A stretch of 19,015 nucleotides of DNA from Oligoflexales bacterium. Lineage in GTDB: Bacteria > Bdellovibrionota_B > Oligoflexia > Oligoflexales > Bog-1112. The translations under genes and the position numbers were made by a program. The stretch covers positions 1 to 19,015 of the forward strand of contig JBGCEP010000084.1 in assembly GCA_045106415.1 (NCBI GenBank), read 5' to 3'. Below the pieces are notes generated by a model. That model did no database searches, had not been told where the DNA came from, and was given only the letters and a program-made list of their open reading frames with translations. Positions within the stretch are counted from its first letter, which is position 1. The number at the start of each line of letters is the position of its first letter. Of the stretch, positions 5,198 through 12,834 are shown piece after piece.

Positions 5198-5710
5198 GTG
5201 TTGCGTTTATACTATCTACTACTTATTCTCATCGCCGTTTCTTGCGGCAAAGATAACAAATCCAGAGATGGCAGCGGTGAAGCTGATGCAAATCCAAAAA
5301 AGAAATCTGGATCTCATATTGTTGTAACAGAGCGAGGTGTTGAAGTCTTTGACGACGAAAAAGAACAAAGCAGCAGCAACAGCAAGAAAGATGAAGACGA
5401 TGATCAAGAAAAAGATGAAGACGATGATAAAGAAAAAGACGGCAATACTGAAGCTAGTGCATGCCAAACGTTCTTTTTAGACAACTTAGCTGAAGACCCT
5501 ATTGGTGGTGCTTGTGCAGCTTGTCATGCAAGTGGGATGGGTGGTTTCACTCTTGAAAGCGGTGAAGATGACGCCAACTTCGCAGCACTTGAAGATCTTG
5601 GATTTAAATTCTTTACAACATGGATTTCTGAAGACGGTGATGCAACACACAAAGGGTTTGCTGACGATTACAACCAATCTTTTGCTGATCTCGAAGAAGC
5701 TTGCCAATAA
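5198..5710 (+). CDS. Acidic monoheme c-type cytochrome lipoprotein
   Basis: RBS AGGAG before GTG, lipobox AVS-C, a D/E/K low-complexity linker and a single CAACH. A candidate distal His lies in ATHKG. Two extra Cys (ASACQ, terminal EEACQ) could form a disulfide. Confidence 0.75.
   Translation: MLRLYYLLLILIAVSCGKDNKSRDGSGEADANPKKKSGSHIVVTERGVEVFDDEKEQSSSNSKKDEDDDQEKDEDDDKEKDGNTEASACQTFFLDNLAEDPIGGACAACHASGMGGFTLESGEDDANFAALEDLGFKFFTTWISEDGDATHKGFADDYNQSFADLEEACQ
5387..5439 (+). repeat. In-frame 24-bp tandem duplication encoding KDEDDD(Q/K)E
   Basis: AAAGATGAAGACGATGATCAAGAA (5387-5410) and AAAGATGAAGACGATGATAAAGAA (5411-5434) differ by one mismatch, followed by a partial third copy AAAGA. 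Confidence 0.9.
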
Positions 5711-5735: not shown

Positions 5736-5771
5736 AGGAGCGGATGTCTAAAGGCATTCGCTCTTTTATTT
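5736..5771 (+). terminator. Rho-independent terminator between the convergent cytochrome genes
   Basis: Stem GAGCGGATGTC-TAAA-GGCATTCGCTC (two G:U pairs favour the + strand) followed by TTTTATTT. An A-tract at 5726-5733 may allow weaker use on the - strand. Confidence 0.75.
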
Positions 5772-8234
5772 AAAAGAAAAAGTATTGTGGCACTGGACAC
5801 AGTTTTGAAAAGCAGGGCTTGAGTGATTAGGGCTTGTCACAGCCTGTCCTTCTTGGAAATGGCACGTTGAACACTTCATAGGCAGTGACTTATAAATCCC
5901 AGCATTATGACAACTCGAACATGGTAGAAGCCTATGCTTTCCTACAAGAGAAAAACGGGTATGCACATCATGCTGAAATTTCGTAGAAGACCACATTGTT
6001 TGCATATGGCAATCAGCACACTGAGGTAAACTTCCTTGGTGATGGTCATCTTCAAAGTGACAGGTCTGGCACTGCTCTCCAGTGCCTGCAAGCACTCTTC
6101 CACCAGCATGGCAACTCTCACATGAAACTTGTAAATGTACTCCTTTTAATTGAAAGTTTTTATGGAACCCATCCACTCCTTTCCATGATCTTTCATTATG
6201 ACAACTTTGACATTTTTTACCTCGAGTTCCTTTGTGAGGATCTTTATGGCAACTCACACATTTGCTAAAAAACTTTTCGCCTAGAATGTATTGTCTTTTA
6301 TGGCGATAAGGTTTCGTTCTAAACTTTTTCTTTGTTGGTTTATGACACTGTATACAGTCAACATCTTTATGCTTTCCTTTTAGAGGAAAACGTGTTGATT
6401 GATGCTTGAAAGGTTTTCTTTTTGAAAAATTAGATGTTGTGTGACACTCAACACAAGGCTGGGTCGAAAACTTTTTACTAAACATATCTTTATGCTGGTT
6501 TCTATGACAATTTTCACAATATTCTTTTTTATGCCATTTAAATTTGAATTTCCTTGCTCTTCTGGGTGGCTTTGAATCTAAAATCCATTTCGTCACAGAA
6601 TGACATTCATGACACCGATGTCCTATCCTGCGATGTTTTCCTGTAATTTTAAAATCTGTTTTAGAATGATTAAACCTTTTTAAATTTTTAAAACTTTGAG
6701 TCGTATGGCAAGTACTGCAGGCCTCATTTTTTAATTTATGAAATTGTTGTTTATGAATATTTTTATGGCAGCTAATACAGAAATCTTTTTTGGCAGAAGG
6801 AAATTTATAAATTCTTTGTTTACCGCGGATATGACAAGATTGACAATTCATTGATTTATGTTTTCCTGTTAATGGAAAACGCGTATTATTATGGAAATTT
6901 TTCCCTTTAAATGATGATCTGTCAGCAGCTATATTTTTCCAACTTTTTGTATTATGACAACTTTCACACTTAGCTCCTTTGAATTTTTTATGGAAACTTT
7001 TCGAATGTGATGATTTGTGACATGTTTCACAACTTTTATGTCGCATCTCTGGAAATTTATATCGCCTTAAAGAAGATTTTTTAGCGAATTTTTTCCCTCC
7101 ATGCACTGTGACATGGCAAGATATACACTTTTTATTTTTATGCATCCCTGTCAGAGGGTAAGAAGTTTGCACATTATGATTAAAACGCAATCTATTTTTC
7201 CAGCCAATCTCATTATGGCAACTTTGACACTTTGTTAAAGATCCCATTTTTGGATGGGATTTTTTTCCAAACCCATGATAATCAGCATGACAAGAAACAC
7301 ATTGATTCGATTGTCCCGACCAATGCTTTTTAAGATCTTTGCTTTTGACATGACAAGACTTACAAGAAGATATTTTATGCTTACCTTTTAAAACAAAGTC
7401 TGTCACCTTATGGTCAAACCTTAGTATTTTCCATTTTATTTCATTATGGCAAGTATGACATTTTCCATTTCTAAATTTTATACTAAGTCCTTTTCCATGA
7501 AAATCATCATGACAACTACGGCATTGTTTCATTGCCAATTGTGGCCATTTATAAGTTGTGTTTCCACTTTTATTTTCATGACATTTTTTACACTCAAGTT
7601 TAGAATGAGAACCATTCAAACTAAATCCGCTCACTATTTTATGGTCAAATTTTGTATGCTTCCATGACGAAATTTGATGACAACTTTTACAATCTTCTTT
7701 TGCATACTTCCCTTTAAACTTATGAACATCATCGTTTTTATGACAATCAATGCAACGATCACTCTGCCCGAAGTATCTTGGGTCTGATTTTCTGGTCAAT
7801 TTTGTTGTTCTTTTTTGTTTATGACATTCTAGGCAAGCGACACGACTATGTCCTCCACCAAGAATATATCCTGTCAAATTATGATCAAAAGATCTCTGGT
7901 TCACCAGAGCGCTATTAAATTGCCGCCCTTTATGATCACTATGACAAGTTGCGCATTTTTTTTGAGCTCTTCCGTGGAAATGTTGCCTCGAATTCACATG
8001 CTTTCCAATATCATCATGACACGATAAACACTTACTATCAGGCAACCCGCCACCTGCCTCATGACAACTCAAACAATCTTTATGCTCTAAATCATGATGA
8101 CCTAGCATAAGAGGTCCTGGTGCTAAGAGCTGGTTTAAAAGCCCTTCAAATCTGCTTTTTTTCTGATCGACCACCGACTGAGAAAAAAGACTCTGAGCAC
8201 AAATCATAAGTGTCATAAAAACAACAAAGCGCAT
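5766..8234 (-). CDS. Exported 30-heme c-type cytochrome (ten tri-heme repeats)
   Basis: Sec-type signal MRFVVFMTLMICAQSLFS and 30 CxxCH motifs counted by hand. The repeating unit is FxH..FxLxGxH..CxxCH..CxxCH-x2-4-H..CxxCH..W/F. The protein is Lys/Arg rich. Its start overlaps the upstream stop (TAATG), with RBS GGAGG. Confidence 0.95.
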   Translation of the reverse strand: MRFVVFMTLMICAQSLFSQSVVDQKKSRFEGLLNQLLAPGPLMLGHHDLEHKDCLSCHEAGGGLPDSKCLSCHDDIGKHVNSRQHFHGRAQKKCATCHSDHKGRQFNSALVNQRSFDHNLTGYILGGGHSRVACLECHKQKRTTKLTRKSDPRYFGQSDRCIDCHKNDDVHKFKGKYAKEDCKSCHQISSWKHTKFDHKIVSGFSLNGSHSKLECKKCHENKSGNTTYKWPQLAMKQCRSCHDDFHGKGLSIKFRNGKCHTCHNEIKWKILRFDHKVTDFVLKGKHKISSCKSCHVKSKDLKKHWSGQSNQCVSCHADYHGFGKKSHPKMGSLTKCQSCHNEIGWKNRLRFNHNVQTSYPLTGMHKNKKCISCHVTVHGGKKFAKKSSLRRYKFPEMRHKSCETCHKSSHSKSFHKKFKGAKCESCHNTKSWKNIAADRSSFKGKNFHNNTRFPLTGKHKSMNCQSCHIRGKQRIYKFPSAKKDFCISCHKNIHKQQFHKLKNEACSTCHTTQSFKNLKRFNHSKTDFKITGKHRRIGHRCHECHSVTKWILDSKPPRRARKFKFKWHKKEYCENCHRNQHKDMFSKKFSTQPCVECHTTSNFSKRKPFKHQSTRFPLKGKHKDVDCIQCHKPTKKKFRTKPYRHKRQYILGEKFFSKCVSCHKDPHKGTRGKKCQSCHNERSWKGVDGFHKNFQLKGVHLQVSCESCHAGGRVLAGTGEQCQTCHFEDDHHQGSLPQCADCHMQTMWSSTKFQHDVHTRFSLVGKHRLLPCSSCHNAGIYKSLPMKCSTCHFQEGQAVTSPNHSSPAFQNCVQCHNTFSFK

Positions 8235-9646
8235 TATGAAGCACCTCCTTCAAAAAGAGGTGGATTCCGAGGGATGGGTGCTGTCCGCGCTGGACCAAAA
8301 ACTCGACTCAACGTGAATAAAAACCCATTTCTATGCCGCCCTGGAGTTTGACTACGAACATGATCAGCTCGTACGAGATATTCTTTATAGAATGTCACTT
8401 CTGAGCCAATTCGCGTTTCTCGCCGAGGCATTGTTGTTATCGAAGATCCAGGATAAAAACGATAGTCAGCATATAGATTTGCATACCTGCTATAATAACG
8501 GATACTACTTCTATATAAAAGAGAACTCCCCTCTGAGTCTTTTTTCTGACCAATTGCAAATCGAGTTGATAAGCCATGAACCCCAAGGTCTCGCACCCAT
8601 GGCCCAAGTGTAATTTCTTGGCTACCAGCTACAGACTCACTCGACGTTGTTTGCTCAAGCGATAACTGAACACTTAGTTTTTTTGAATACTTATATTGAG
8701 TATCAAAGTAAGCCATCGATCGAGCCTTAACATTTGCTCCATAAATTTCATCCCGTTCTAGTATAGATTGCTCAATATCACTGACTAATTGATAGCTTGT
8801 TGTGTTCGAATATGACCATAAAAAAAAGTTTGACCATTTTCCTAAGGTCCTAGAATATCCAAAACGCCCCTGTCTGATTCGCGCAGAGGGTGAAAGTTCA
8901 ACTTTAATATGCGAAGTTAAACGATGCCCTGTCCACGGAACCCAAATCCCAGTCTGAACACCAAGCATTTGAGAAGACTCAACAATAGGGTCAGGGTGAG
9001 ACGTAATCAAAATGCCACCTGTACCGTAGGCATAATAACCAGATGGTGATTTATCTTCATATTCTATATACCCACCACCTTGAAGGTCAGAACGAGATTC
9101 TCGGCGCAGCTGGCTTTTCGAATTTGTAAAATCAGAAACAATACCGATAAAGCTCTCAATTTTTATCTTCTTGCTCCATCTCATTCCTGTCATAAAACCA
9201 TCATGTCCTTGAACACCCATGGCTTTAATTGGAAAGCGTCCAATAACAGCCCCATATTTATATCGCCCTGTAGGCCTATGCCACGCAAGGTGGTGAGCTT
9301 GTATTTTAGACGAGGGGCTCAAAGTAGCACCATCTGCAACTTCACCATATGCATCATATAAATAACGGACATGAGACTTAAAATAACTCTTACCCACAAG
9401 GGTTTTCATTTCTAAAAGTCCAGAAGCATATTTCTGACTATTCGGCACACCTTGAAGACTCGAACCATCTTCAAAACCTGAGCTCCCCTGAACAATAGAC
9501 TCCCCATAATGAGTCTGTACACGTCCTGAAGTGGATACAGCAAAACCATCTGATCCAAGCAGCAGTAGTAAGACAGATGCCCATAAAGACCATCTACACA
9601 AAAATAGAGCGTTGTACGCCAAAACAACCCATTCCAATGAAAACAC
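8234..9646 (-). CDS. Probable outer-membrane beta-barrel (porin of a porin-cytochrome complex)
   Basis: A signal-like segment ends ...LLLLLGSDGFA. The remainder lacks TM helices and has many alternating polar/aromatic strands (e.g. AYFDTQYKYSKKLSVQLSLEQ, YANLYADYRFY, GFLFTLSRVFG). It sits between two multiheme genes. The true start is uncertain. Confidence 0.65.
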   Translation of the reverse strand: MFSLEWVVLAYNALFLCRWSLWASVLLLLLGSDGFAVSTSGRVQTHYGESIVQGSSGFEDGSSLQGVPNSQKYASGLLEMKTLVGKSYFKSHVRYLYDAYGEVADGATLSPSSKIQAHHLAWHRPTGRYKYGAVIGRFPIKAMGVQGHDGFMTGMRWSKKIKIESFIGIVSDFTNSKSQLRRESRSDLQGGGYIEYEDKSPSGYYAYGTGGILITSHPDPIVESSQMLGVQTGIWVPWTGHRLTSHIKVELSPSARIRQGRFGYSRTLGKWSNFFLWSYSNTTSYQLVSDIEQSILERDEIYGANVKARSMAYFDTQYKYSKKLSVQLSLEQTTSSESVAGSQEITLGPWVRDLGVHGLSTRFAIGQKKDSEGSSLLYRSSIRYYSRYANLYADYRFYPGSSITTMPRRETRIGSEVTFYKEYLVRADHVRSQTPGRHRNGFLFTLSRVFGPARTAPIPRNPPLFEGGAS

Positions 9647-9707
9647 ACTTTTATGTTACCACTGGATGACGGTCTTCCATTTTAAAGAAGACTTAAACAT
9701 TTGTTTT

Positions 9708-10109
9708 TTAAAGAAAATTAGGAGGAGACCAGGCAGGATATGCATGACAGCTCAGACAATCTCCATCAGCCGTATGACTTTCACGATCAGGCCTATCTAA
9801 TCCATGACAACCTAAACACGGTTCTCTTTCATCGTCTACGATATGTTTATGACTTAGAGGATCCCATTTATTGTCTACTTCATATTTATGGCACTCTGAA
9901 CACTCTCGCCCAAAACCATGCTTCACATCGTTAGCACTCGCAAGTCTTTCGTGCTCATGACACTCCGAACAATCCAAAGTAAATTTTTCATGATCGATAG
10001 AAGGGCTTTGAAAATTTTGATCCGTTACTTGTGGGCCTGCATCATTACGACAGTTCCAAAGGTTTAAGCACATAAACACAATAAATAACCTAGAAAAATT
10101 AAGATGCAT
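9708..10109 (-). CDS. Tetraheme c-type cytochrome lipoprotein
   Basis: The likely start is ATG 10109 (MHLNFSR...) with RBS GGAGAGG, overlapping the upstream stop; the ORF track starts at 10124. Lipobox-like LWN-C. CSECH, CSECH, CLGCH and CLSCH are arranged as two di-heme repeats, each ending in Trp. Confidence 0.9.
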   Translation of the reverse strand: MHLNFSRLFIVFMCLNLWNCRNDAGPQVTDQNFQSPSIDHEKFTLDCSECHEHERLASANDVKHGFGRECSECHKYEVDNKWDPLSHKHIVDDEREPCLGCHGLDRPDRESHTADGDCLSCHAYPAWSPPNFL

Positions 10110-11439
10110 CAGGCGCCTCTCCATGTTTCACATCAATTTTAATTCCAAGGTCTTTCAAAAATTTAAACGGAAGTTCAGCACCTGCAAAAACAAATAAATA
10201 ATGATTCTCTATCGTTCTTTTTTCATCTTGACTCACAATGGTAATTGTTTCTTTCTCAATAGAGTCAACAGATGTATTGTAGTGAACTTTCACTCTTCTT
10301 TTTTCAACATATGTCATTAAAATTGCTTTATTTTCTTCATTGCACCGATCTAAAAGATCTCCACGAACCAGAAGACGAACTTTATTCTTAAGGTGAACGT
10401 CCCCTAGTCTTTGAGCAGCTTCAACAGCAGCATTACCACCACCAACAATAGAAATATGACAGTTCTGGTACTGTTCTGGTTCTAATAAGTTATAAGTCAC
10501 TTTCGGCAGATCTTCATTGGGGAGACCAAGCTTTCTAGGGGTTCCTCTGACCCCCATAGCAAGAATAACTTTCCGTGCTCGTATCATTTTTTGAGATGTT
10601 TCAACCTCAAAAATATCTCCATCAGATGCCAAGTTAACAAACCTATGATTTTCATCAACATTCAACCGCAGCTTCCCCCGAAGACCGGTCCACAATTCCA
10701 TAAGTTCTTCTTTTGTTACTTTATTTTGACGAAATTTATAAGACCCTACAATCGGAAGTTCCAGAGGATACGACATCACAAGCTTCTGCCTCGGAAAATT
10801 TGCAATCGATCCCCCAAACTGGCCCTGTTCTAAACATAAATGAGAAACTTTTTTCTCCTTGCATGCCAAAGCAGCTGTGAGACCAGCAGGGCCCGAGCCA
10901 ACAATCAAAACATCAACATCTGCTATAAGAGATGAGTCCAAATTTTCAATGGCATGATAGGCAGCAAGCCGGCCTTGTTTTGTCGCATTACGAATCAACC
11001 CCATGCCACCTAACTCGCCAGCAATATAAAGCCCTTGAACATTGGTTTCATAGTTTTTATTAACCCTAGGAAGCTCCATACCTCGAGTCTTAGTTCCAAA
11101 CACCAATGTGATCGCACCAAAAGGACAAGCAGCTTCACACTCACCATGCCCTACACAAGCGGTTGGTGAGACCAATCGAGCCCGATCACCGACGAGCTTT
11201 AAAATTTGCCCTTCAGGGCACGCCCGAAGACAAGCCCCACACCCTGCACATAAAGCTGGATCAATCACAGGGTGTAAGGATTGAGGCTCAGATCTCTTCT
11301 CTTCAACAGCCTTTTTCCAAGCTGCCAAACCTTCTTTATTTTGTCTTTCTCTTCTTGAAGACATAAACCATGCCACAAAGACAAAAAATAAAAAGCCAAT
11401 AATTTGCAAATTTTCCAATAAGAAATAATAAAGCTGCAT
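10099..11439 (-). CDS. Membrane-anchored ferredoxin / FAD-NAD(P)H oxidoreductase (TrxR fold, circularly permuted, no CxxC)
   Basis: N-terminal TM helix; CAGCGACLRACP and CVGHGECEAACP; ETNVQGLYIAGE; DVLIVGSGPAG; ILAMG; IVGGGNAA. RBS GGAGGAG. Confidence 0.9.
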   Translation of the reverse strand: MQLYYFLLENLQIIGFLFFVFVAWFMSSRRERQNKEGLAAWKKAVEEKRSEPQSLHPVIDPALCAGCGACLRACPEGQILKLVGDRARLVSPTACVGHGECEAACPFGAITLVFGTKTRGMELPRVNKNYETNVQGLYIAGELGGMGLIRNATKQGRLAAYHAIENLDSSLIADVDVLIVGSGPAGLTAALACKEKKVSHLCLEQGQFGGSIANFPRQKLVMSYPLELPIVGSYKFRQNKVTKEELMELWTGLRGKLRLNVDENHRFVNLASDGDIFEVETSQKMIRARKVILAMGVRGTPRKLGLPNEDLPKVTYNLLEPEQYQNCHISIVGGGNAAVEAAQRLGDVHLKNKVRLLVRGDLLDRCNEENKAILMTYVEKRRVKVHYNTSVDSIEKETITIVSQDEKRTIENHYLFVFAGAELPFKFLKDLGIKIDVKHGEAPDAS

Positions 11440-11463
11440 AGAAACAACTCCTCCACAATACTT

Positions 11464-11490
11464 TTATCGGAAGGAAAAAAAACTTCTAGA
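11464..11490 (-). promoter_or_regulatory. sigma28-like internal promoter upstream of the flavoprotein gene
   Basis: On the minus strand, TCTA-N15-TCCGATAA, a 7/8 match to the GCCGATAA -10 box, in the 69-bp intergenic gap. Confidence 0.45.
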
Positions 11491-11508
11491 ATTTTAAAGG
11501 CATGATTC

Positions 11509-12384
11509 TTAGTTCGCCTGAAAAATAAAAGACGATGCAATATGAACCGCGACCGTTGTATACATAATCACAGCAAAAGGAGCATGAAAACTATGCCAAT
11601 GTGAAAAAATTTTTCGATAACTTGGTAAACATCGAAGCCTTATGTGAAGAAGACCCCACCTACAAAAAAATTTTCGTAATAATGGGTGGTCATATTTCAA
11701 TGACGGTGACCAAAATAAAAGCTTCCACTCTCCTAAGACTCCCCAAGACAAGATACTCACCTGTCCGACTCCTTTTAACTGCTGAGGATCACGACCTAAG
11801 GCTGTTCGAAATACTTTTCTATAAACATATTTCAAATGCTCAGGAAGAAGCGCTCCTTCGCTTTCATCTGCAAGGCGAGCAATTCTTGTTTCAATTTGCT
11901 TAATTTCTCCTCGTAATGAAGACTCGGCCTGGAGCATGCGGATATACAAAAATCGCCCTATAATTCCACTGATAAAACTACACATCATGGACCAAAAACC
12001 AACAGCAGCAAGTCCTTCGATACTCCCCCCTGTATGGAAGAAAATAAATGTTGAGCCTGTTAAACCAAAGAAGATGTGCCAATTCAGCCAAGCTTTTAAA
12101 TCAACCCCCTGATTACCCGATTGCAAACGCTTTTTTGCTATATAAAAATTTGTACAAACAATAAGAAAAAAACCAATCCAACCAAGGATATAACTAACAG
12201 GCTCACCAGCCTCTAGACTCAAAGCTTTGCCACACTTCTCACCATAAAAAAGGCATACCAGTATGGGCAGTGCCTGCGGCCAAGTAAAATCAAATCCGAT
12301 TGCGACATACTCATAAACAAGCCACAGTGTAATAAGAACCCAACATAGTATTAACGGCCTTAGGTTATTCAAAAAAAACCTCAC
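11509..12384 (-). CDS. Ferric-reductase/NOX-like transmembrane di-heme cytochrome b
   Basis: Multiple TM helices carry two H-x13-H pairs (WHIFFGLTGSTFIFFH and FHAPFAVIMYTTVAVH). A large soluble loop lies between them. The GTG start has a weak RBS. Confidence 0.75.
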   Translation of the reverse strand: MRFFLNNLRPLILCWVLITLWLVYEYVAIGFDFTWPQALPILVCLFYGEKCGKALSLEAGEPVSYILGWIGFFLIVCTNFYIAKKRLQSGNQGVDLKAWLNWHIFFGLTGSTFIFFHTGGSIEGLAAVGFWSMMCSFISGIIGRFLYIRMLQAESSLRGEIKQIETRIARLADESEGALLPEHLKYVYRKVFRTALGRDPQQLKGVGQVSILSWGVLGEWKLLFWSPSLKYDHPLLRKFFCRWGLLHIRLRCLPSYRKIFSHWHSFHAPFAVIMYTTVAVHIASSFIFQAN

Positions 12385-12785
12385 ATCATCGCAATTATAA
12401 ATATCGTAGCATAGACTCCGCCGAGGTGACCGTTCTCCACTTCAGCTACCAGATCACATCACATATCCGTAACCAAGCAAAAACTTTCAAAGCCTCAATT
12501 GGCATTCAATGAAGTATTTCTTTAACCTACCGAAGGCTATTGCTATAGCAAGGCGAAGTATTATTGATACACCTATAAGAGACCAAATACTGCTTTCACA
12601 AAAGTGATTTATCAACTTCTTTAAATGCTTAACACGCAAATAAAATCATCTAATGCTATATGATTACGACCAACAACCTTTCTGTGCGGAAAACTTTAAA
12701 ATTATTCAAATCTATGTCTTTTTCTACCATCTTCCAAGTTAACAAAAAACACTTCCTCTTCTGCCTATTTTTCGACTTCTGATCC

Positions 12786-12814
12786 TTGACACAACAATCA
12801 TCTTAAGGCATCCT
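12786..12814 (+). promoter_or_regulatory. Putative sigma70 promoter for the formyltransferase gene
   Basis: TTGACA (12786-12791)-N17-CATCCT (weak -10), then RBS AGGGG before ATG 12835/12841. Confidence 0.35.
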
Positions 12815-12834
12815 CACTAATAACATAGGGGATA

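Follow-up and report, generated by a model that had tools for sequence, protein, structure and literature searches.

The window analysed here is an entire contig of 19,015 bp from an Oligoflexales bacterium, whose metagenome-assembled genome (MAG) amounts to 2.95 Mb and is 93.8% complete. Between positions 5766 and 12384 it carries five open reading frames (ORFs) on the minus strand; from the first gene to the last, their junctions measure +69, -26, +61 and -1 bp. The products are a candidate di-haem cytochrome b of 291 aa, an iron-sulfur (Fe-S) flavoprotein, a tetrahaem cytochrome, a predicted outer-membrane beta-barrel and a 30-haem cytochrome (Table 1), and the cluster as a whole contains 34 c-type haem motifs (CXXCH; 30 + 4). 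The best overall explanation that we can offer, in which we place about even confidence, is that the five genes form one operon for an electron conduit spanning the cell envelope. An earlier reading made from the letters of the window, called here the sequence-only reading, had proposed such a conduit for five co-oriented genes with two overlaps and two gaps of at most 70 bp, and its coordinates are exact.

Table 1. Features of the five-gene cluster and its surroundings in the 19,015-bp window
Feature	Coordinates	Strand	Basis
Di-haem cytochrome b candidate, PCC3/PCC4-type 'IMP', 291 aa	11509-12384	-	motifs, AlphaFold2, homologue alignment
Membrane-anchored Fe-S flavoprotein, 446 aa	10099-11439	-	Pfam, motif conservation, PDB alignment
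Tetrahaem c-type cytochrome, probable lipoprotein, 138 aa	9708-10124	-	CXXCH count, signal sequence and Cys25
Predicted 22-strand outer-membrane beta-barrel, N-terminal signal sequence, 470 aa	8234-9646	-	AlphaFold2, Foldseek
30-haem c-type cytochrome, type-I signal peptide, 822 aa	5766-8234	-	CXXCH count, Pfam
Presumed promoter region, 450 bp intergenic, shared with a divergent formyltransferase-like gene	12385-12834	.	position only
Mutator-family transposase fragment at contig end	18491-19015	+	family match

When 71 homologues of the 291-aa membrane protein are aligned, H103, H117, H267, H281, S139, G140, G143 and W263 prove invariant and W99 is kept in at least 90% of them. These residues make up two motifs of the form WX3HX13H (W99-x3-H103-x13-H117 and W263-x3-H267-x13-H281) and one SGXXG motif (S139-G140-x-x-G143). 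The AlphaFold2 model is all-helical and confident, with a mean predicted local distance difference test (pLDDT) score of 92.1, and its helices, the hydropathy and the loop charges, which obey the positive-inside rule, give five transmembrane helices with the N-terminus inside and the C-terminus outside. The HX13H pairs sit on the third and the fifth helix, so that the four histidines, as putative ligands, form two pairs on two transmembrane helices in an arrangement suited to two haems across the membrane; the predicted topology places H103 and H267 near the cytoplasm and H117 and H281 near the periplasm. Residues 150-262 form a helical loop of about 110 residues, rich in Lys and Arg and predicted to be cytoplasmic, which in the model would offer a docking surface.

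A HMMER search (phmmer) covering 1.84 billion cluster representatives found 1213 relatives of this protein at E <= 0.001 and 292 at E <= 1e-10; the closest is a single metagenome protein, 66% identical, and the next nearest is only 38% identical. Single scans of the 71 family members gave weak matches, all of them sub-threshold, to DUF4405 in 39 (best E 8.1e-6), to Ferric_reduct in 10 and to Ni_hydr_CYTB in 6, and structure rows of the Atlas labelled 'Ferric reductase like' reach TM 0.51. The family profile found nothing meaningful among PDB sequences, where the top match is a designed protein (E 0.0057), and a word-index search, weak evidence in itself, returned two matches for the membrane protein and none for longer, fused forms. 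A purified DUF4405 protein binds haem b, according to the available part of its description (PMC11334425). The four invariant histidines, the weak matches to di-haem families and the haem b of the purified DUF4405 protein make the assignment as a di-haem cytochrome b, which is also that of the sequence-only reading, well founded as a sequence-based prediction, though not proven.

The 446-aa protein encoded next has a hydrophobic N-terminus, in which residues 3-29 or thereabouts form a transmembrane helix, a two-cluster domain with ferredoxin-type motifs (C64xxCxxCxxxCP and C95xxHxxCxxxCP) and the dinucleotide motifs GSGPAG at 181 and GGGNAA at 333. Pfam recognises Pyr_redox_3 (E 1.4e-39) together with Fer4 families. 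Among 51 homologues C64, C70, C74, C95, C101 and C105 never vary, and C67 and H98 hardly do; with this near-invariant H98 in place of the second Cys, the motif of the second cluster becomes CxxHxxCxxxCP. The motif for flavin adenine dinucleotide (FAD), G181xG183xxG186 with the consensus GAGPAG, and the GGGNAA motif are conserved as well. Among solved structures, the NADPH-dependent YpdA/Bdr 7a7b is nearest to it by sequence (E 2.5e-25). The protein shares the two-Rossmann FAD/NAD(P)H fold of YpdA/Bdr and of the thioredoxin-reductase (TrxR)-like ferredoxin:NADP+ reductases, but it differs from YpdA/Bdr in its N-terminal transmembrane helix, its two-cluster ferredoxin domain and a circular permutation, by which its residues 124-144 correspond to Bdr 273-294 and yet precede the main FAD Rossmann domain. 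The Cys of the Bdr motif GGGPCG, which is the catalytic active-site Cys, is moreover replaced by Ala (GSGPAG) in the alignment to 7a7b, and the score against the YpdA/Bdr model TIGR04018 is 160.8 bits with a cut-off of 339.9. For these two reasons an identity as a YpdA/Bdr-type thiol reductase is rejected, and since the only invariant cysteines are those of the Fe-S motifs the protein should not be a thiol-disulfide reductase at all. A basic stretch follows the transmembrane helix and no twin-arginine motif precedes it, so the cofactor domains should be cytoplasmic. The simplest reading of the sequence is a thioredoxin-reductase-like NAD(P)H:ferredoxin reductase that would be fused to its own ferredoxin and tethered to the membrane. 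A predicted complex of the membrane protein and the flavoprotein with two haems and two [4Fe-4S] clusters scored 0.19 and 0.17, where the mark is 0.32, and speaks neither way.

Downstream of this pair lie the genes for the two c-type cytochromes and the barrel. The 138-aa protein, whose gene start overlaps the flavoprotein gene by 26 bp, has four CXXCH motifs, where 2000 shuffles give a mean of 0.05 and a maximum of 2, and Pfam c3/c7 matches that fall just below the cut-offs. All four motifs, H45, H69, H94, L22 and C25 are invariant in the seven homologues aligned, and the invariant Leu(-3)/Cys(+1) after the signal sequence (7/7) makes it a probable lipoprotein. We propose that in the periplasm it links the membrane cytochrome b to the 30-haem cytochrome as an adaptor, a position that in other lineages is taken by cytochromes with 7 to 20 haems. 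The 822-aa cytochrome, which starts with an overlap of 1 bp on the barrel stop, has 30 CXXCH motifs (shuffle mean 0.41, maximum 3, again in 2000 shuffles), or 27.4 residues per haem, an isoelectric point (pI) of 9.8, 14% Lys and 78 His, and it is the sole ORF of the genome with more than five CXXCH. Pfam finds Cytochrome_C7 (2.9e-28), Cytochrom_c3_2 and, weakly, MtrC/MtrF domain II/IV (6.1e-12) in it, and in homologues with 24-33 haems the N-terminus that follows the signal peptide is conserved. No CX3CH or CX4CH, haem motifs of the catalytic type, was seen.

No Pfam or NCBIfam model matches the 470-aa protein, nor did the word-index search find anything. Its AlphaFold2 model, built on an alignment of 45 sequences, has 22 long antiparallel strands (mean pLDDT 79.7). 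Foldseek returned 346 PDB matches for this model at E <= 0.001, down to E 8e-9, of which ranks 1-50 are all outer-membrane barrels, with FimD/PapC usher pores and Occ porins as the best, and VIA-align gave Z 18.1 to OccK7 and aligned 339-366 residues to TonB-dependent/SusC transporter barrels. MtrB is absent among the barrel matches listed (the best 50 of 346 in Foldseek and 50 rows in VIA-align), and a similarity to it may still exist. We propose that the 30-haem cytochrome is a haem wire through this barrel. The sequence-only reading had named these same parts, namely a membrane-anchored Fe-S/FAD/NAD(P)H oxidoreductase, a 4-haem lipoprotein, a beta-barrel-like protein and a 30-haem cytochrome, and motifs, shuffles, homologue alignments and structure prediction bear it out on each.

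The gene set is strongly co-conserved, as the sequence-only reading had suggested checking. In a sample of 61 genomes from the same family and order as the window genome, the membrane protein occurs in 15, the flavoprotein (E <= 1e-60) in exactly these 15 and neither of them in the other 46. A scan for related loci, with one genome per species and a 12-row alignment of the membrane protein as the query, gave 507 loci, of which the best 80 were kept; 37 of these, the full-flank loci, have at least 9 kb on both sides of the gene. The flavoprotein is present at 67 of the 80 loci and at all 37 with full flanks, and most of the 13 loci that lack it end near the gene at a contig edge. At 62 of the 80 loci, and again at 37 of 37, the membrane protein is accompanied by an ORF in which at least 19 haem motifs occur. 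A profile hidden Markov model (HMM) of the barrel family matches 49 of the 80 loci and 28 of the 37, and in 39 of those 49 an ORF with at least 19 haem motifs directly follows the barrel ORF; most of the other ten can be put down to split cytochrome genes, ORFs called too long or contig ends. The order of the genes is not fixed: that of the flavoprotein lies before, after or divergent from that of the membrane protein, and this variety points to a functional and not merely inherited linkage of the two. In one protein, P0125, a polyferredoxin and the membrane protein are naturally fused, with all motifs kept.

Among the best 80 of the 507 loci the nearer hosts are Oligoflexus, including the isolate O. 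tunisiensis Shr3 (L029), Pseudobacteriovorax and MAGs labelled as Bdellovibrionales and Bacteriovoracaceae; the distant ones are Bacteroidales, Ignavibacteria, Calditrichota, Zixibacteria and Acidobacteriota. The membrane protein is found in 31 of 131 genomes of the phylum as defined in that sample, in none of 15 other genomes of the window's own family and commonly in four other families of the order. Given this patchy distribution, the cluster could have been acquired horizontally. The transposase fragment at the contig end and the distance of the next membrane-protein relative (38%) may fit such an acquisition too. Two variants of the cluster are worth recording: at one locus (L018; G024:C2, 1-7480), found in one family, a 16-haem cytochrome replaces the tetrahaem one and the genes are rearranged, and in Oligoflexus (L027, L029 and L031) the giant cytochrome is split into ORFs of 9 and 24 haems.

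Two plasmids carry the module far from the Oligoflexales. On plasmid pEMTOL02 of Emticicia oligotrophica DSM 17448 (100 kb; L111, 8728-20526) CcsA is encoded together with the membrane protein, the flavoprotein, a 23-haem cytochrome and a 40-haem one. Emticicia is a cultured Bacteroidota isolate; the flavoprotein of this plasmid is annotated as 'NAD(P)-binding domain-containing protein', and the locus also contains a gene for a hypothetical protein of 538 aa. On the megaplasmid pMSHV of Sphingobium herbicidovorans (L110, 9284-24693) a gene for a protein of 841 aa, annotated as cNMP-binding and containing a domain that resembles the flavoprotein (HMM E 1.4e-57), stands directly upstream of a membrane-protein homologue, to which the family profile matches with E 4.7e-24 and which belongs to an alphaproteobacterial cytochrome cluster. 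This pair suggests cyclic-nucleotide control of the same entry module in Alphaproteobacteria. More cytochrome genes lie near the pair, including one of 1330 aa.

The rest of the genome provides a context for such a conduit. The check for cytochrome c maturation genes that the sequence-only reading had called for yields three matches to the cytochrome c assembly family PF01578. The same reading had stated that no quinol module of the NapC or NrfD type is encoded in the cluster, and this extends in part to the genome, which contains no match to the NapC/NirT family PF03264 in its 93.8%-complete assembly and a single NrfD match, located beside a pentahaem gene on a different contig. The only haem-copper oxidase of the genome is on contig C10. 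The pentahaem ORF, of 200 aa, and the NrfD-family gene (G000:C52:6876-11926) look like an alternative complex III (ACIII), and this ACIII-like pair and the single oxidase imply a quinone-based aerobic chain. Elsewhere in the genome (G000:C48:10036-11702) a second tetrahaem ORF, of 141 aa, is divergent from a 409-aa ORF with two N-terminal CXXCH and a long C-terminal part that is perhaps a barrel, and the two ORFs might make up another small cytochrome-porin pair.

The cluster is a lineage-specific variant of a known and uncharacterised kind, PCC3, to which we liken it by motif signature and gene content. PCC3 clusters were predicted from genomes by He, Barco, Emerson and Roden in 2017 (PMC5566968), and what is said of them here follows the available parts of that paper, of a pangenome study of Gallionellaceae (PMC9900912) and of a preprint on Sideroxydans CL21 (10.1101/2025.02.27.639646). 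They were discovered in Fe(II) oxidisers and are expressed there (PMC5566968, PMC9900912, 10.1101/2025.02.27.639646); the reported hosts are Alpha-, Beta- and Gammaproteobacteria (PMC5566968), and the two later sources list four genes and call the system 'functionally unverified'. The 'IMP' of PCC3 and PCC4 is a protein of about 300 aa and five transmembrane helices, with SGXXG on the fourth helix and WX3HX13H on the third and fifth; He et al. note its likeness to ferric-reductase domains and draw it as quinone-active, by analogy with bc1 and hydrogenase cytochrome b (PMC5566968). In PCC3 one cytochrome is periplasmic and one extracellular, both being large (medians of 21 and 34 haems, 22-39 aa per haem), and the porins have large numbers of transmembrane regions, up to 42 (PMC5566968).

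Our cluster agrees with PCC3 in the size, the five helices and the exact SGXXG and 2 x WX3HX13H signature of its membrane protein, in its gene for an outer-membrane barrel, in a giant cytochrome whose haem density (27.4 aa per haem) falls within the PCC3 range, and in the concept of a single wire across the whole envelope. It differs from PCC3 in that its cytochromes have 30 and 4 haems instead of being two large ones, that its barrel has 22 strands where PCC3 porins have up to 42 transmembrane regions, and that it has an Oligoflexia-type host and a conserved Fe-S flavoprotein, whereas PCC3 is drawn as ending at the quinone pool. A flavoprotein partner is not mentioned in the available parts of the three published accounts (PMC5566968, PMC9900912, 10.1101/2025.02.27.639646), and the supplement text of He et al., which is perhaps incomplete, does not contain Oligoflexus, Bdellovibrio, Bacteriovorax, flavoprotein, 4Fe-4S or pyridine nucleotide-disulphide. 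What is new relative to published PCC3 is a conserved input through the flavoprotein, and this speaks for a supply from the cytoplasm. The belief of the sequence-only reading that similar gene sets occur in other genomes stands, given the related loci, but not that they had gone unnoticed, for the kind is already in print as the PCC3 prediction (PMC5566968). Its other statement, that no biochemical characterisation exists, agrees with our literature search, which found none for this cluster type, no match to a characterised complex and nothing on Oligoflexia.

Other known systems resemble parts of the cluster. The PCC4 or cNMP-binding polyferredoxin-IMP clusters (subgroup II) also have a related five-helix di-haem protein beside a cytoplasmic Fe-S protein, and He et al. 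record one case annotated as a single Fe-S-IMP gene, the sort of fusion that P0125 represents; unlike our cluster, they have three small periplasmic cytochromes (4, 5 and 10 haems), no giant one and other cytoplasmic partners, as far as the accessible text goes (PMC5566968). NADPH oxidases (NOX), ferric reductases, STEAP and MsrQ, of the ferric-reductase-domain superfamily, and DUF4405 proteins (PMC11334425, in its available part) stack two b haems across the membrane on two HX13H helices, as is predicted here, and the proposed transfer from a cytoplasmic flavin/NAD(P)H module to an acceptor across the membrane, without quinone, is of the NOX/STEAP/MsrQ kind. Here, however, the membrane protein has five helices instead of six and no match at Pfam threshold, the flavoprotein is a separate TrxR/YpdA-type protein with two Fe-S clusters and not a fused FNR-type domain, and the acceptor is a chain of multihaem cytochromes. 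With MtrCAB/CymA of Shewanella and Pcc/Ext with ImcH/CbcL of Geobacter the cluster shares the pairing of barrel and multihaem cytochrome genes, a path across the envelope and, with MtrCAB, the weak MtrC/MtrF domain II/IV match of the 30-haem protein. It differs from MtrCAB/CymA in a score of 62.4 bits against the DmsE/MtrA decahaem model TIGR03508 (cut-off 192.2), in the lack of a match of its barrel to the MtrB/PioB family, in the absence of a NapC/CymA family gene from the genome and in an entry through cytochrome b and flavoprotein in place of a quinol dehydrogenase.

The logic of the cluster would be that of a split transmembrane NAD(P)H oxidoreductase of the NOX/STEAP type joined to a PCC3-type porin-cytochrome wire. 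We start from the parts, motifs, predicted folds and co-inheritance, which are observed or computed, and infer from them cofactor loading, contacts, direction, acceptor and quinone independence. NAD(P)H would reduce the FAD of the membrane-anchored flavoprotein, from which the electrons would pass through the two Fe-S clusters to the cytoplasmic-side haem b (H103/H267) and cross the membrane to the periplasmic-side haem b (H117/H281). The tetrahaem lipoprotein would take them up and deliver them to the 30-haem cytochrome, which, in or threaded through the 22-strand barrel, may pass them to an extracellular or surface oxidant such as Fe(III), Mn(IV), humics or O2. That the conduit is fed from the cytoplasm and not from the quinone pool, with outward flow from NAD(P)H to the cell surface, is a reading that we hold with evenly balanced confidence; the obligate Fe-S flavoprotein partner, the P0125 fusion and the cytoplasmic loop point to it. 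Outward flow would be favoured, since it runs towards higher redox potential and the membrane potential, negative inside, assists it. The membrane step would export negative charge, as in NADPH oxidases, and would therefore consume membrane potential. For this reason, and in an otherwise aerobic organism, an electron sink or reductive iron or metal acquisition is a likelier role than the main energy-conserving respiration.

The readings that compete with this one differ in where the electrons enter, in which direction they move and in how far they travel. The cluster could be a quinone-linked PCC3 conduit as published, in which the flavoprotein is an accessory, be it a second input, a regulator or a keeper of reduced haems. 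It is a serious rival, though we consider it rather unlikely, and it agrees with the model of He et al., in which IMP is a quinone-active cytochrome b (PMC5566968, available part). The weak matches of six of the 71 family members to Ni_hydr_CYTB, a quinone-reactive family, are in its favour, and the organism probably has quinones, to judge from the ACIII-like NrfD and pentahaem pair and the haem-copper oxidase. The Fe-S flavoprotein, however, is co-inherited in all 15 carrier genomes of the 61 and in 37 of 37 full-flank loci, an Fe-S protein is fused to the membrane protein in P0125, and the large conserved loop is cytoplasmic. All three, flavoprotein, fusion and loop, are expected for a cytoplasmic redox partner and needless for a quinol oxidase. 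We found no quinone-site motif in the membrane protein, and we know of none for this type of protein. The quinone independence claimed by the sequence-only reading can nevertheless only be inferred, the same membrane-protein type being modelled as quinone-active in print.

The electrons could instead stop short of the cell surface. As in the MsrQ-style supply of periplasmic partners, the membrane module might feed periplasmic cytochromes that store electrons or reduce oxidants such as peroxide, O2 or nitrogen oxides in the periplasm, with the barrel as an ordinary porin or substrate uptake channel. MsrQ/DUF4405-type cytochromes do feed periplasmic enzymes (PMC11334425, available part), and in structure the barrel comes closest to ordinary porins, transporters and ushers. 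We nevertheless judge this improbable: the barrel gene is translationally coupled to that of the giant cytochrome here and adjacent to it in 39 of 49 loci, which resembles pairs of the MtrA/MtrB type, and 30 haems at 27 aa per haem, with no catalytic-type haem motif (no CX3CH or CX4CH), look like a long wire and not like an enzyme. Finally, in an inward conduit Fe(II), Mn(II), a cathode or a partner cell would donate electrons from outside, and these would reach NAD(P)+ and supply reducing power. The cofactor chain is reversible in principle, and PCC3 was found and is expressed in Fe(II) oxidisers, where such a role is suspected. From typical donors, such as Fe(II) at about 0 V or above, the path would run uphill to NAD(P)+ at -0.32 V, the inside-negative membrane potential would oppose the entry of electrons, and the cluster encodes no proton- or ion-coupled device; the genome is of an aerobic heterotroph type with one large cytochrome only. 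The reverse path, which the sequence-only reading had offered beside the outward one, is thus thermodynamically unlikely for ordinary donors, and we regard it as very improbable.

Several points weigh against the outward, cytoplasm-fed conduit. The 291-aa protein matches no Pfam and no NCBIfam family above threshold, and Foldseek with its model gave no match at E <= 0.001, so that no solved di-haem cytochrome is tied to it. In a wide VIA-align search STEAP4 (6hcy_C) appears at rank 30 (Z 7.9, root-mean-square deviation 4.6, 156 residues), amid unrelated helical hairpins. In one genome of the sample (G017) the membrane protein and a truncated flavoprotein match lie on separate contigs, and the co-occurrence counts make the support look stronger than it is, since related genomes are not independent of one another. 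The 4-haem protein is too short to bridge the periplasm, which puts the geometry of the hand-over in doubt, and the placement of the 30-haem protein at the surface is our proposal, a point that also favours the periplasmic alternative. The evidence for the conduit is genomic throughout, and the sole published model of this membrane-protein type, in its available part, is quinone-active (PMC5566968).

Electrons enter the known routes of extracellular electron transfer (EET) through quinol dehydrogenases (CymA, ImcH and CbcL) or, in Gram-positive bacteria, through the route of Ndh2, demethylmenaquinone and EetAB. To our knowledge, the characterised Gram-negative conduits all start at the quinone pool. 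We would suggest, tentatively and with somewhat less than even confidence, that the cluster adds a third type of entry at the inner membrane. The Fe-S flavoprotein and the five-helix di-haem b protein would together act as a split NOX-like NAD(P)H:cytochrome oxidoreductase that connects cytoplasmic pyridine nucleotides, with no quinone step, to a haem wire extending to the cell surface. The module would occur widely in non-model lineages that are largely aerobic (Oligoflexia, other Bdellovibrionota-type bacteria, Bacteroidota, Acidobacteriota and others), and it is maybe the missing cytoplasmic partner of PCC3. If a conduit that starts from NAD(P)H is real, the budgeting of electron export changes, with no proton-motive gain and a direct coupling to the cytoplasmic redox state. 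It would also account for giant multihaem cytochromes in aerobes with no known metal respiration, and the inner-membrane end of PCC3 as published would need correction. Two cultured carriers, Oligoflexus tunisiensis Shr3 (L029) and Emticicia oligotrophica DSM 17448 (pEMTOL02, L111), open the question to direct testing.

The surroundings of the cluster are unrelated housekeeping genes: rhodanese, CrcB, BamE, DUF1499, a formyltransferase-like gene, FapA, DUF1295 and TPR genes. A consensus scan finds one weak sigma-70-like site on the minus strand at 12863-12835, promoter-like sites in that scan being no more frequent than in shuffles (26 against 21.5 +/- 4.5 expected). It is uncertain whether the genes for the 291-aa and 470-aa proteins really start at their GTG codons, and the Atlas record of the 291-aa protein starts at residue 5. 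Convergent with the cluster end lies a 170-aa ORF (5198-5710, plus strand) with a signal of the lipoprotein type (…AVSCG), a single CXXCH (CAACH) and a long stretch of low complexity that is acidic. This monohaem protein was considered as a sixth component and rejected, since it is not conserved: BLAST finds no homologue of it in the related loci or in the rest of its own genome. A different small monohaem lipoprotein adjoins the membrane-protein gene in several of the related loci.

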